Below are positions 8,783-31,831 of a DNA stretch of 33,548 nucleotides, in pieces. Origin of the DNA: Deltaproteobacteria bacterium. GTDB lineage: Bacteria > Desulfobacterota > Dissulfuribacteria > Dissulfuribacterales > JALVPX01. The stretch lies in assembly GCA_027031565.1 (NCBI GenBank), contig JALVPX010000159.1, positions 1 to 33,548 of the forward strand, given 5' to 3'. Within the stretch, counting starts at the first letter, position 1; every line of letters begins with the position of its first letter. The notes beneath the pieces are model-generated. The model did not search any database. It was not told where the DNA came from and saw only the letters and a program-made list of their open reading frames with translations. Position numbers and translations under genes: made by a program.

Positions 8783-9286
8783 TTAAGTATTTAAGGCCGT
8801 TACTATTTCGCGGTTGAAGGCGGGGATGTCAGAAGGCTGCCGCGACGTTATCAAGTTGCCGTCCACGACCACTTCTGCATCCACATATTCCACTCCTGCT
8901 GCCCTCATTTCCCCTGCAATTGCCTTGTAACCCGTGGCCTTGCGGCCCTGGATCACGCCTGCTGAGATCAATACTTGCGGGCCGTGGCATATGGCAGCCA
9001 CTGGCCGTTGAACCTTGAAAAAATCCTTTACTATATCCTGTACTCTTGGAATTCCCCTTATCGCCTCTGGTGCTTTTCCGCCAGGTATGACCAATATCTT
9101 GTAGCCGCTGCTTTGGACATCATCAAAGGAGAGGTTGGCAGTTACGGTGTATCCCCTCTTTCCCTTGATCTCTCCCCATTCCGGGGCCGCAATATCCACT
9201 TGAAAGCCCTCTTCCCTCAGCCTGTACATCGGACACAGTAATTCACTGTCTTCAAAGCCGTCTGCACTCAAGATCAATGCCCGCAT
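8783..9286 (-). CDS. DJ-1/PfpI family protein (intracellular protease/deglycase type)
   Basis: MRALILSADGFEDSEL...ILVIPGG...AAICHGPQVL carries the nucleophile-elbow Cys-His. The ATG at 9286 is preceded by GGAGG. The longer ORF reaching 9397 has no family support. Confidence 0.85.
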   Translation of the reverse strand: MRALILSADGFEDSELLCPMYRLREEGFQVDIAAPEWGEIKGKRGYTVTANLSFDDVQSSGYKILVIPGGKAPEAIRGIPRVQDIVKDFFKVQRPVAAICHGPQVLISAGVIQGRKATGYKAIAGEMRAAGVEYVDAEVVVDGNLITSRQPSDIPAFNREIVTALNT

Positions 9287-12517: not shown

Positions 12518-12527
12518 GCGGAAACTC

Positions 12528-12668
12528 AAGGCGTTCTCTAAAAATTAGGATTTTTGTTCGAGGGCAAGGTGCACAAAAATAACCGCAGACATATTGTCGA
12601 TATTTCGAGGATTATTTTTGAGTGCAGTGCAGCTATTGGGCAAGAAGACAATTTTTAGAGACAGCCTT
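12528..12668. repeat. Small palindromic repeat element, copy 1 (~141 nt, MITE-like)
   Basis: Terminal inverted repeats aaggcgttctctaaaaatt and aatttttagagacagcctt. Inner hairpin gcacaaaaataacc (12571..12584) with ggattatttttgagtgc (12609..12625). A near-identical copy sits at 21253..21396. Confidence 0.85.
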
Positions 12669-12743
12669 AAATGTTCTGGCTGGAAGATGGGCAGGCGTTT
12701 TTGCGAAGTCCGCCTGATTGTCAATCGCCTGATCAAGCTACAT

Positions 12744-21210: not shown

Positions 21211-21252
21211 GGCAGCTGGAATATACTTTATTTTTGAAAAGTGAAAAACTTG

Positions 21253-21396
21253 AGGCTGCGTCTAAAAATTAGGATTTTTGTTCAAGGGCAAGGTGCATAG
21301 AAAAATAATCACAGACATGTTGTTGATATTTCGAGGATTATTTTTTTGAGTGCAACGCAGCCAACGTGGCAAAAAGACAATTTTTAGAGGTAGCCT
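21253..21396. repeat. Small palindromic repeat element, copy 2 (~144 nt)
   Basis: It aligns end to end with 12528..12668. Termini are aggctgcgtctaaaaatt and aatttttagaggtagcct. Differences are a few substitutions and 2 nt indels in A/T runs. It begins 42 nt upstream of the recN ATG. Confidence 0.85.
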
Positions 21397-21430
21397 AAAG
21401 TATTTCCTTGAAAGACAGAACTATTTTAAT

Positions 21431-21800
21431 AACTGCCCGTTAATGGGGTGGCTGGTGTGTCTCCTTCACCATTTTTAAAGGTCTGCGTGCGTCTGCAACG
21501 GCTCTTACATCCTCTTCACGTTAAAAATGGTTCAGGAGCCATCCCCAGCCGCCGTCCCCACGACTGTGCATTCAAAAAGCTTTTTATCCCGAAGGGTCTT
21601 TGATTCCCATGCCTTAAAATCGACGATACAGGTTTTTAAAAAGTCTTTTTGAAAGAAAAGCTGTTGGGTTTATACGCAGGTGCGGATCAGGTCTAGTGTG
21701 TGGCTCCTGAAGAGTTTTCGGCGTGAATGGGGCCAGGATGTGGAGTAGCTGCACGAAAAGAACTCTGAAAACTCTGAAGGAGACACCACTAGACCTTGTA
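21431..21800. repeat. Large foldback repeat, copy A (two ~105 nt hairpins flanking an AT-rich core); candidate MITE or structured ncRNA
   Basis: Hairpin 1 spans 21447..21553 and hairpin 2 spans 21690..21795. Hairpin 2 is a diverged reverse complement of hairpin 1. The unit has no ORF and repeats at 21851.. and 31341.. Confidence 0.85.
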
Positions 21801-21850
21801 AGGGAAATAATTATTTCACATTAATACGTGCTTTTGTGAGGTCAGTTTTT

Positions 21851-22205
21851 AACTGTCTTTAATGGGGCGGCTGGAGTGTCTCCTTCACCATTTTTAAAGG
21901 TCTGCCGTGCGACTGCCTAGGTTCTTCATTTTCTTCACGTTAAAAATGGTTCAGGAGCCAACCCCAGCCACCGCTTCCACGTATGTACCACCTAAAAGCA
22001 TTTTTTATCTCAAAGAGTCTTTGATTCTCATGCTATTAAAAAATGACGGCACCGCCCTTTAAAAAGTCATTTTAAAAGAAAAGCATTTTTGTTTGTACGC
22101 AAGGAGATTGAGTCTAAATAGTGGCTCTCGAATGGTTTTCGGTGTGAATGGGGCCAGGATTCGGTTTAATTTCGCCCAAACGAAAGTGGCTAAAGTTGCT
22201 GGTTA
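21851..22205. repeat. Large foldback repeat, copy B (tandem to A, 420 nt offset; 3' hairpin degenerate)
   Basis: Hairpin 1 (21864..21973) differs from copy A at 13 of ~111 hand-aligned positions. The core is recognisably homologous. The 5' arm of hairpin 2 is present (22110..22160) and the 3' arm is largely lost. Confidence 0.8.
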
Positions 22206-22345
22206 AGATCTGTTTTTGATGTCTTTCCTTGAACTTTAAGGTATAAACTGCGGTGGGATTGGCTTTTTACTGTTTAAAAAATTTCTTTTTATTCCGAAAG
22301 GTGGAGAAAGGCCTGTTATTGTCTAATCTCAGGAGGAATGACGTA

Positions 22346-28353: not shown

Positions 28354-28695
28354 TTACTCATCCTGCCCGATTAAATCGAGCCATTTTTCCACCAGCTCCT
28401 TGAATTCTCCATGCTGCAAGGCAATTTTCTGGCCCTGCCCTTCGTAGAGCGGTTCGATGACCACCTGGTCATGATTCATGGTGACCGCATAGGCATTTCC
28501 TACGAATTCAGTGGCTATTGGGCCGGTTTCGGCCTGGTCGAGCAGACGCAGGAGCTCTCTTGCCATGGCACTGTCGGCCTGTATGTCCGTCTGCAGAAAC
28601 ATGGCCGCGCTTTTCATGTCTCCATTAGCCTCTACCCTAGGCATGCCTTTTTCATCTATAAAAAATCTTGGTTTTTTTCTTTTTCCTTTTGGCAT
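28354..28695 (-). CDS. Small acidic cytoplasmic protein, candidate partner or immunity protein of the upstream EndoU-like nuclease
   Basis: The ORF lies directly downstream of and overlaps the nuclease gene. The start is uncertain: ATG 28695 gives a 44 nt overlap, and ATG 28644 lies 7 nt after the nuclease stop. The sequence is acidic and has no signal peptide. It faintly resembles UPF0231/YacL-like proteins; unverified. Confidence 0.5.
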   Translation of the reverse strand: MPKGKRKKPRFFIDEKGMPRVEANGDMKSAAMFLQTDIQADSAMARELLRLLDQAETGPIATEFVGNAYAVTMNHDQVVIEPLYEGQGQKIALQHGEFKELVEKWLDLIGQDE

Positions 28696-29194
28696 TGTTA
28701 CGATCCTTGATATAGACAGGAAAGGCTGTATTAATATTCCCCCTCTTGTTGAGATAACCTTGGATGACAAATCCACTGCCAGACGGGCCTATCCACGGCT
28801 GTTTCCGCGGATGTTCCCTGTGCTTGTAGGCGTGGAGTATGGCCTTTATCACTTCTTTGCGGCTCATCTTGTCAGGGAAAAAGGAGGAGAATTTCTGTTT
28901 CCATCTACGAGTCCTCTTGTCCCATATTTCCACCCGGGCAGTATAGACCCCAGCCCTGTTGGGTGGAGAGACTATTTTCACCATCCTTGCTGTCTCAGGG
29001 TCACGCCCCCCTGGCCTTGAGTGAAACCCCACAGGCCTTCCTTTTCTGTTGATCTCGCCCTTGAAAATATGGGTCAAATTGATTTGGGGCCTTGTGCGGC
29101 TCCACTCAGATCTTGCACATATAGAGACAGGCAGCAAAAGGATGCCGAGGGCCAGAAGGCATGCTGGCAGCAGCCACTTGTTTCTGAAATTCAT
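28652..29194 (-). CDS. Secreted EndoU-like (EndoU_bacteria family) ribonuclease
   Basis: The ATG at 29194 is preceded by GGAG. Signal peptide MNFRNKWLLPACLLALGILLLPVSICA. Then THIFKGEINRKGRPVGFHS, GVYTARVEIW, KQKFSSFFPDKMSRKEVIKAILHAY and GFVIQGYLNKRGNINTAFPVY match the His/His/Lys-containing blocks of bacterial EndoU domains as I remember them. Confidence 0.65.
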   Translation of the reverse strand: MNFRNKWLLPACLLALGILLLPVSICARSEWSRTRPQINLTHIFKGEINRKGRPVGFHSRPGGRDPETARMVKIVSPPNRAGVYTARVEIWDKRTRRWKQKFSSFFPDKMSRKEVIKAILHAYKHREHPRKQPWIGPSGSGFVIQGYLNKRGNINTAFPVYIKDRNNAKRKKKKTKIFYR

Positions 29195-29261
29195 GGTTCC
29201 AACTCCATCCCGATGCAACAATTGATGGCATCAATATATCAAACGGGATTTATGCTGTCTA

Positions 29262-31340: not shown

Positions 31341-31700
31341 GTTTAAGAGGGCTGCTGGGGGTCTCCCTCACCATTTTTATAGGGTAGCCGTGCGACTGCC
31401 GAGTCTCTACGTTCCATTTCCGATAAAAAATGTTTCAGGAACCACCCCAGCAGCCATTTCCACGCCTGTGCATTCCAGAAGGATTTCATACGGCGTTGAA
31501 ATTTATTCCGTGTTATTCAAAATAAAGATAAATTTTTTCTTTTTTGAAGTGCCTGATTTGGAATTTGAACGCAAATGCGAAATGGGTTCAGTGTGTGGCT
31601 CCTGAAGAGTTTTCATCGTGAGATGCAGCACAAGGTGCAAGAAGCCGCACGAAAAGAACTATAAAAACTCGGAAGGAGACACACACTGAACCCTGTAATA
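31341..31700. repeat. Large foldback repeat, copy C (solitary, more diverged)
   Basis: Hairpin 1 spans 31350..31455 and hairpin 2 spans 31584..31693 (14 bp perfect basal helix gggttcagtgtgtg/cacacactgaaccc). The core is AT-rich. The architecture matches copy A, with compensatory changes in both basal helices. Confidence 0.85.
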
Positions 31701-31831
31701 TGGTTAATGTGTAAAAAAACATCTCCTTTTAGTCAGTTCTACTCTTCCACTCCGAATTTTGGCAAATATTCAGAGTGATATTGCAACCAGTGTGATTTAG
31801 GGAGGCCGGGTCTGTGGCGCTGGCAGCTAGG

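Follow-up and report, generated by a model that had tools for sequence, protein, structure and literature searches.

Why do two long palindromes keep their base pairing in copies of a repeat whose sequences have drifted apart? The question is raised by the window, by which we mean the whole 33,548-nt stretch of contig JALVPX010000159.1 analyzed here. This contig derives from the chromosome of an uncultured Thermodesulfobacteriota bacterium and bears housekeeping genes (Pfam scan of open reading frames, ORFs), and its nearest named protein relatives are metagenome-assembled genomes (MAGs) of the Dissulfuribacterales or Desulfobacteraceae. Three copies of an element of ~360 nt each lie within 10 kb, in two long intergenic spacers. 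Copies A (21447-21795) and B (21866-~22235) are flanked by recN on the minus strand and a CitMHS transporter gene on the plus strand, while copy C (31350-31693) is located between the convergent NamZ and phosphoribosyltransferase (PRTase) genes. The unit is a composite of ~360-470 nt, in which a long imperfect palindrome is followed by a spacer of ~130 nt and a second palindrome of ~110 nt; we refer to the palindromes as hairpin 1 (H1) and hairpin 2 (H2). The reading that we favor, and to which we give about an even chance, is that the copies represent an undescribed family of dispersed, non-coding, non-autonomous palindromic intergenic repeats of a narrow Thermodesulfobacteriota clade, whose hairpin shape is under selection.

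Paired substitutions preserve both hairpins

The initial annotation held that copy C retains both basal helices of copy A through paired substitutions, and a base-for-base re-reading confirmed all the coordinates and bases that it quoted. In the H1 basal helix, copy A carries ggTGgctgg (21447-21455) paired with ccagcCGcc (21545-21553), and copy C carries ggCTgctgg (31350-31358) paired with ccagcAGcc (31447-31455), corresponding to changes from T.G to C-G and from G-C to T-A. In the H2 basal helix, ggtCTagtg (21690-21698) pairs with cacTAGacc (21787-21795) in copy A, and ggtTCagtg (31585-31593) pairs with cacTGAacc (31684-31692) in copy C, corresponding to two adjacent double changes, C-G to T-A and T-A to C-G. 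Double changes are found outside the basal helices as well: at the top of helix 3, A-T has become T-A and another pair has gone from G-C to T-A. The loop block gccgtgcgactgcc is indeed common to copies B and C.

To assess these differences, the same number of stem bases was mutated at random and the pairing was recounted on a structural alignment of 30 pairs. The H1 hairpins of copies A and C differ at 9 stem bases and form 26 and 27 pairs, respectively (P ~0.001); their H2 hairpins differ at 11 stem bases and form 26 pairs each (P ~0.002). A few uncompensated changes exist between the two copies, and the preservation is strong, not perfect. Over the whole elements, copy A is ~70% identical to copy C and ~78% identical to copy B.

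Covariation among homologous hairpins

Relatives were reached by walking out from the flanking proteins and then by using a pattern built from the features common to both element types. The flanking proteins recovered strains of the window's species (L001-L004, L018 and L033), and copy C is present in all three strains of that species. In a second species, another uncultured member of the Thermodesulfobacteriota (L015, L016 and L030) with a NamZ 72% identical to that of the window, a diverged H2-type hairpin lies in another spacer, between the EndoU and pseudouridine synthase (RluA) genes. The common-feature pattern revealed four further loci of this second type in one JGI metagenome (L020, L023, L024 and L027) and recovered the known locus again (L025). 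The second species carries the unit at at least five loci, adjoining, for example, carAB, Hsp20, RNase PH and RluB-like genes. Its repeated unit measures 473 nt and consists of a 200-nt hairpin, designated X, a spacer and an H2-type hairpin.

In a covariance-model (CM) alignment of 14 distinct hairpins with 23 consensus pairs, which represents only 3-4 lineages and whose statistics ignore kinship, 95.0% of the cells pair, compared with 79.2 +/- 1.4% in shuffles. Both-sided changes occur at 14 of the 23 pairs, compared with 8.1 +/- 1.7 in shuffles, and none of the 500 shuffles reached 14. When the partner was slid by 1-3 columns, only 2-5 both-sided pairs and 38-61% pairing were left. A hand-curated structural realignment of 30 pairs, which corrects a one-base register shift between the two types, contains 354 Watson-Crick, 24 G.U, 7 A.C and 24 other cells, and at 18 of the 30 pairs at least two Watson-Crick types are seen. 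Both-sided compensated changes are numerous: 8-10 separate H1 from its paralogue H2, and 8-13 separate the window's type from that of the second species. In the pairwise comparisons overall, the random-mutation nulls give P from ~0.002 down to <5e-5. The earlier view that the helices are kept while the sequence drifts, implying selection on secondary structure in RNA or in single-stranded or cruciform DNA, is thus supported and is strengthened by the relatives' sequences.

Recent divergence has left a different pattern. In the second species, copies that diverged recently differ by single changes, of which 10 are wobble-compatible and 9 disruptive; double changes are absent. From strain to strain, identity is 96.1-97.6% over the entire NamZ-PRTase spacer, copy C included, and 98.2-98.7% in the adjacent NamZ gene. 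The compensation between lineages, set against the uncompensated recent changes, suggests that the structure is maintained in the long term while individual copies are weakly constrained, some of them decaying. Decayed copies are H2 of copy B and the copies at L020 and L027. Together, our results show that individual copies decay and that the persisting lineages keep the hairpin shape through compensated substitutions.

Among the searched data, the element is known in two species-level lineages only. No copy was detected in ~90 kb from four more distant relatives (L017, L028, L029, L034, L035 and L036). A two-arm pattern scan of GTDB with one genome per species gave 7 matches, all of them chance matches without a hairpin, and the source species itself is evidently not among the representatives. 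Three scans of viral contigs and blastn searches of plasmids and phages gave chance matches only or none.

A shared four-helix plan with fixed irregularities

All hairpins can be read in a common orientation, hereafter the GA orientation, which corresponds to the reverse complement of H1 or to the plus strand of H2. From the base outward, the shared plan opens with 9-14 bp of basal helix. A G.A mismatch or bulge separates this helix from the next, CUCCU/AGGAG, which spans 5 bp and is followed by a symmetric internal loop, 5'-GA/5'-GA. Above the loop come 11 bp of A/U-rich helix, then a bulge of 7-12 nt on one side only, and finally the CGUG/CACG helix with a variable apex. The one-sided bulge reads ACGAAAAGAACU in H2. 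The tandem 5'-GA/5'-GA loop is present in 14 of 14 hairpins and the G.A mismatch in all seven window-type hairpins, and a U.G pair is found subfamily-wide (5 copies). The hairpins measure 105-110 nt with four helices and an apical region of ~25-45 nt, and their G+C content is 43-54% over CM matches of ~125 nt. These data show that each 110-nt palindrome, as a single strand, can fold into a four-helix hairpin with an invariant tandem G.A loop and a conserved one-sided bulge.

As RNA, every intact hairpin folds well below dinucleotide shuffles on both strands (z scores -3.0 to -8.7), and the intact hairpins also beat such shuffles when folded as DNA on either strand. H1 of copy A (21447-21553) folds at -43.2 kcal/mol on the plus strand (z -3.8) and -46.2 on the minus strand (z -4.5), and matches the covariance model CM R1 on the minus strand with 92.6 bits. 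It follows the plan with the basal helix ggtggctgg/ccagccgcc, the CUCCU/AGGAG helix, a 2x2 loop, the A/U-rich helix, the CGUG/CACG helix and an apical loop. H2 of copy A (21690-21795), whose tandem GA/GA loop is readable on the plus strand, folds at -51.6 kcal/mol on that strand (z -5.2) and matches CM R1 there with 110 bits, while the two-arm pattern matches it on the minus strand. Copy B stands in tandem with copy A at a period of ~420 nt, showing that copies can duplicate in tandem. Its H1 (21866-21972; ggcggctgg/ccagccacc) scores 103.3 bits with CM R1 on the minus strand, and its spacer (21973-22110) is 76-82% identical to that of copy A. H2 of copy B (22111-22235) is a decayed remnant of 60% identity, with a recognizable 5' arm and a lost 3' arm; its region folds no better than shuffles (z -0.85 and -0.30) and gives no match to CM R1. 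In copy C, H1 (31350-31455; ggctgctgg/ccagcagcc) folds at -41.8 kcal/mol on the plus strand and -48.9 on the minus strand, with 104.4 bits on the minus strand, and is followed by a spacer at 31456-31583. H2 of copy C (31584-31693) has two arms of 36 nt (31584-31619 and 31658-31693) that are 83% complementary; it folds at -50.2 kcal/mol on the plus strand (z -6.8) and -53.9 on the minus strand (z -8.7), and scores 113.2 bits with CM R1 on the plus strand.

The fixed irregularities bear on how the paired changes arose. One alternative is that the two arms of a quasi-palindrome are homogenized mechanically, by template switching or arm-to-arm conversion during replication or repair, without any structural selection. 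Both strands fold almost equally well, as DNA or RNA, the wobble asymmetry described below is weak and heterogeneous, and a templated event would account for adjacent double changes such as CT/AG to TC/GA. Homogenization predicts perfect complementarity, however, and yet the GA/GA loop, the G.A mismatch, the U.G pair and the 7-12 nt bulge persist beside changing pairs. In addition, the paired basal-helix positions are ~90 nt apart, and recently diverged copies display uncompensated single changes rather than rapid correction. We therefore regard this explanation as improbable. The initial annotation had itself named arm-to-arm conversion in a DNA palindrome as the scenario that would undo its conclusion, and the fixed mismatches beside changing pairs make that scenario unlikely.

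A second alternative does without any hairpin: the arms could be two copies of one duplex protein-binding site, such as the terminal inverted repeats of a MITE or an operator, which co-change to fit the same protein. Inverted repeats do exist on two levels, between the arms of one hairpin and between H1 and H2; the spacer contains palindromic motifs such as AAAAAGCTTTTT, and insertions are polymorphic between species. The arms nevertheless differ family-wide at fixed positions (GA versus TC, the G.A mismatch and the U.G pair), ~30 consecutive positions per arm covary, which is far above a typical binding site, and no cognate protein gene is found nearby; we consider this model quite improbable. 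The fixed GA/GA loop, G.A mismatch and bulge beside changing pairs instead favor a specific folded single strand over both arm-to-arm correction and equal duplex sites. Since DNA, too, can form stable sheared G.A pairs and G.T wobbles, the folded strand could be single-stranded DNA as well as RNA.

H2 is an inverted duplicate of H1

In the window's species the two hairpins are themselves related. One two-arm pattern detects both hairpins, H1 on the plus and H2 on the minus strand, and the element profile matches the reverse strand of copy A itself with an E value of 5.8e-19. In pairwise alignments, the homology takes in the apical region (CGTGA...GCACG) as well as ~40 nt of flanking sequence, in which a palindromic box, AAAAAG(T)CTTTTT, lies. 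The two halves of the copy A spacer (21554-21689), in which the motif TTTGATTCYC is present, likewise align as inverted homologues, AAAAAG(T)CTTTTTGA ... ATGCACAG / ATACGCAGG. As judged from these alignments, H2 is shown to be an inverted, diverged duplicate of H1. With one hairpin in each orientation, either strand would present one hairpin with the GA loop.

An A5-GC-T5 box, exactly palindromic (AAAAAGCTTTTT / TTTTAAAAARTCT), and the TTTGATTCYC motif are conserved in the spacers of both species (window 21575-21586 and 21643-21657; L015 ~9040-9056). By eye, the minus strand of L015 (AATCAAAAATTTA) matches the IHF consensus WATCAANNNNTTR.

Hairpin X replaces H1 in the second species (L015 8757-8975; L020 1239-1456; L023 2-146, where the apex carries a deletion). 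X resembles H1 in its basal helix, GGCAGCT/AGCTGCC, and in parts of the 3' side, and from this likeness it may be an expanded H1.

Copies occupy different spacers in different lineages

The spacers that carry the element are short in relatives. The NamZ-PRTase spacer measures 663 nt with copy C in the window, compared with 66, 113 and 1 nt in L015, L028 and L029. Conversely, the EndoU-RluA spacer measures 596 nt with the element in L015 and 40 nt in the window. The spacer upstream of recN, which holds copies A and B together with a member of a second repeat family (Y, below), is 1135 nt in the window and 419, 127 and 64 nt in three relatives. The flanking genes are unrelated and different at every locus. 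These comparisons show that the intergenic spacers in which copies were gained differ from lineage to lineage.

Of the 15 contigs that carry the element (the window not counted), at least 8 start or end inside it (L001, L016, L018, L019, L024, L027, L032 and L033), as is usual for multi-copy repeats in assemblies. No contig but that of the window has the A/B tandem intact. Because the public assemblies of both species repeatedly end inside elements, the copy numbers are probably underestimated.

Other long palindromic repeats accompany the element, namely Y in the window and X in L015. The two Y copies (12522-12680 and 21246-21404) are 84-91% identical, and each forms an imperfect palindrome or hairpin of ~150 nt. 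The plus strand of Y folds much better than the minus strand (consensus -42 versus -25 kcal/mol) and contains several G.U pairs. The second copy, Y2, abuts copy A, and the whole recN-CitMHS spacer thus consists of repeats.

Wobble pattern, strand and a possible small RNA

If the hairpin acts as RNA, one strand might be preferred. The GA orientation folds more stably than its complement in 12 of the 14 hairpins. The comparison of G.U with A.C mispairs proposed in the initial annotation gives 24 versus 7 cells in this orientation, or ~13 versus 4 independent events. Two further A.C mismatches come from H2 of strain L033 when read in the GA orientation, bringing the total to ~13 to 6, and within the window's species the wobble pattern favors the minus strand for both hairpins (~7 to 2). 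Taken as a whole, the comparison is not decisive for the strand.

These data are relevant to the possibility that the element is a family of small-RNA genes, in which each hairpin of ~115 nt together with ~50-100 nt of conserved upstream sequence forms its own transcription unit. The two units would be transcribed divergently from the spacer, and both RNAs would carry the tandem G.A loop and the purine-rich bulge and act in trans through protein binding or base pairing. The greater stability of the GA orientation and its excess of G.U over A.C cells are in line with this idea, and the GA/GA loop forms a stable sheared tandem where the other strand would read UC/UC. Two unpaired blocks, ACGAAAAGRACU and CGUGA...GCACG, are conserved; conservation of the upstream flank extends across the two species as well as across the H1 and H2 units; and no neighboring gene is consistent across loci. 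By reading, a stem followed by a T-run lies ~30 nt downstream of the hairpin in three of the five second-species loci (L015, L020 and L024). This candidate terminator stem (AGCC...GGGY; L020 ~1725-1785, L024 ~190-245, L015 9255-9290) could belong to the unit. L023 has the same downstream flank with the loop of the stem deleted.

Several observations do not fit such genes. Inspection by eye and scanning found no sigma-70-like or sigma-54 promoter with a conserved position or spacing at the elements. Simple terminator scans flagged nothing at the element loci scanned, including the AGCC...GGGY stem of L015 and L024 (L020 was not scanned). The distance from a TTGAA box to the hairpin varies by 20 nt between the H1 and H2 units and by 6 nt between the species. 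The A.C mismatches of L033 dilute the wobble signal, and the minus-strand bias shared by both hairpins in the window's species misfits divergent transcription. Moreover, copies decay, the element-bearing spacer evolves no slower than the flanking gene, and the distribution is very narrow. We consider small-RNA genes a doubtful, if still serious, alternative.

In its fullest form, this idea would make the ~115-nt hairpin a new class of bacterial non-coding RNA, defined by four covarying helices, a sheared tandem G.A, the bulge ACGAAAAGRACU and an apex closed by CGUG/CACG. It would be encoded by multi-copy, often divergently paired genes with their own terminators, and would have a dedicated protein partner or a single-stranded seed, with the repeat-like spread being secondary. 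We rate this version, too, as a minority possibility. If it were correct, the hairpin would be a structured RNA motif new to Rfam. No Rfam 15 family matches anywhere in the window at the gathering score, permissive filters on both loci gave only sub-threshold chance matches, and the L015 unit is likewise without a match.

Coding, leader and other candidate functions

The position of copies A and B upstream of, and on the same strand as, the CitMHS/Usp operon raises the possibility of a cis-regulatory leader of CitMHS, and stop-free frames of 28-73 codons that cross H2 in most copies raise that of a small-protein or type I toxin-antitoxin locus. Copy C and the L015 copy lie between convergent genes, however, and the genes flanking the element are unrelated across loci. 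The frames shift between copies (H2 of copy C and L020 by +1 nt; L015 and L024 differ after REK/REN), H1-type hairpins hit a stop four codons after GTG, and no homologous predicted protein was found in 5.8 billion sequences. Such a leader or small-protein locus is thus very unlikely.

The stop-free frames of H2 run on both strands (window 21723-21824 on the plus strand and 31588-31722 on the minus strand; L015 9142-9261 on the plus strand and 9036-9245 on the minus strand). They read CTKRTLK... on the GA strand and ...FRVLFV... on the other, and were judged non-coding in view of the frameshifts, the stops in H1-type hairpins and the purine-rich or T-rich composition. The hydrophobic ...FRVLFV... 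frame results from the T-rich composition of its strand.

Integron attC sites are imperfect palindromes bounded by RYYYAAC ... GTTRRRY, standing in one-orientation cassette arrays with an integrase nearby. By reading, the ends of the element (GGYNGCTGG/CCAGCNRCC, GGTYYAG/CTRRACC and GGTTTAGG/CCTAAACC) do not fit GTTRRRY; H1 and H2 are opposite in orientation, and no integrase is encoded in the window. This candidate was rejected, and SRP-like RNA, Y-RNA-like RNA, retron and omega/bridge-RNA candidates were dropped, as defining sequence features or partner genes are lacking. No tRNA was found in the window.

Near the element-bearing spacers, both species keep a gene with an EndoU nuclease domain of the bacterial type (window 28354-29221, minus strand; L015 7825-8662), which overlaps a small downstream ORF. 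The two genes form a possible toxin/immunity pair.

A proposed family of palindromic repeats

We return to the reading of the element as a family of dispersed, non-autonomous palindromic repeats. Under this model, its propagation or its function would depend on the hairpin. The hairpin might act as a stem-loop in any transcript that crosses the element, contributing to mRNA end protection, processing or termination as in REP/BIME, ERIC, Correia and bcr1 sequences. Alternatively, a single-stranded DNA hairpin might be recognized by an enzyme encoded in trans.

Several findings weigh against this reading. The hairpins are three to five times longer than REP units, and sequence is conserved outside the helices as well, at ACGAAAAGRACU, at CGUGA...GCACG and over ~100 nt upstream. 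The copy numbers seen are modest: the window's species has 3 copies, and the second species carries the unit at 5 loci or more. A Pfam scan of 30 window ORFs revealed neither a transposase nor a recombinase, and no element-like ends adjoin a transposase in the window or in ~400 kb of relatives' loci. The ends of the L015 and L020 units share no direct repeat that would point to a target-site duplication, and the species that supply the empty and the filled sites are too diverged for an alignment. Presence and absence at orthologous sites (the NamZ-PRTase, EndoU-RluA and recN-upstream spacers) are seen between species only, and we infer mobility from that difference, at a NamZ identity of ~72%, and not from a filled and empty pair of close strains. 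Finally, the stem and T-run downstream of the second-species hairpins look more like a gene with its own terminator.

If the repeat-family reading holds, the element represents a long-hairpin, two-module repeat family from an uncultured sulfur-cycling lineage. The family explains why MAG assemblies break at the element-bearing spacers. It also provides a small test case for distinguishing selection on RNA, selection on single-stranded DNA and mechanical correction of palindromes, since the H1/H2 inverted duplication is old, the subfamilies have diverged and young copies are visibly in decay.

Comparison with known systems

Among known systems, the element comes closest to the palindromic repeats of bacteria, and on the favored reading it is of the same kind as bcr1, REPINs/BIMEs, ERIC and Correia sequences. 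The bcr1 repeat of the Bacillus cereus group (~155 bp) is dispersed in intergenic regions, and two independent stem-loops with base-pair compensatory changes are predicted for it; it is transcribed and mobile and has 5-bp direct repeats, some copies have lost stability, and its distribution is not conserved between relatives (PMC3184786). Like bcr1, the element described here is a dispersed intergenic repeat with two stem-loops and compensatory changes, some copies have decayed, and its distribution differs between relatives. It differs from bcr1 in having no sequence relationship to it, in belonging to another phylum, in its hairpins of ~110 nt and unit of 360-470 nt, and in that no direct repeats are seen.

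REPINs and BIMEs are doublets of REP sequences mobilized by RAYT; a REP is 20-40 nt long, G+C-rich and marked by a 5' tetranucleotide, and occurs in tens to hundreds of copies alongside a single-copy RAYT gene. The layout of a BIME is a palindrome, a central motif and an inverted palindrome. The flanks are part of tandem REPIN clusters, and compensatory changes on the two sides of the hairpin are frequent (PMC3116915). The element resembles this arrangement in that H2 is similar to the reverse complement of H1, including the loops and the flank. It is unlike REP in its ~110-nt units with four helices and conserved internal loops, in the 3 and at least 5 copies seen, and in that no RAYT (Y1 transposase) is found among the 30 ORFs scanned in the 33.5-kb window.

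ERIC and Correia/NEMIS sequences are imperfect intergenic palindromes of 100-150 bp that are co-transcribed with their neighbors, form RNA stem-loops and vary in presence between related genomes (for an overview, see PMC3184786). Each unit contains one palindrome, they occur in Proteobacteria, and Correia sequences carry a TA duplication and 26-bp inverted repeats. The element shares with them the imperfect intergenic palindromes and the presence or absence between related genomes, and differs in having two palindromes per unit and no similarity to any Rfam family. Like MITEs, it is a non-coding unit below 600 bp (360-470 nt, without a conserved ORF). Its ends are inverted, H1 against H2, in the window's species; the second species has hairpin X at the left end instead.

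With multi-copy structured small RNAs that are still absent from Rfam, the element has in common covarying helices, conserved loops and bulges, a sheared tandem G.A and, at some loci, a possible terminator-like stem. It differs from them in that no promoter was found, copies decay, only two species-level lineages carry it and no protein gene is associated with it.

The element belongs to none of the bcr1, REPIN/BIME, ERIC and Correia families: it lacks direct repeats and sequence similarity to them, no RAYT is in view, and its units are 3-5 times the length of REPs. If it is indeed a repeat family of its own, it joins REPIN, ERIC, Correia and bcr1 on the short list of repeats whose hairpin shape is demonstrably maintained by compensated change.

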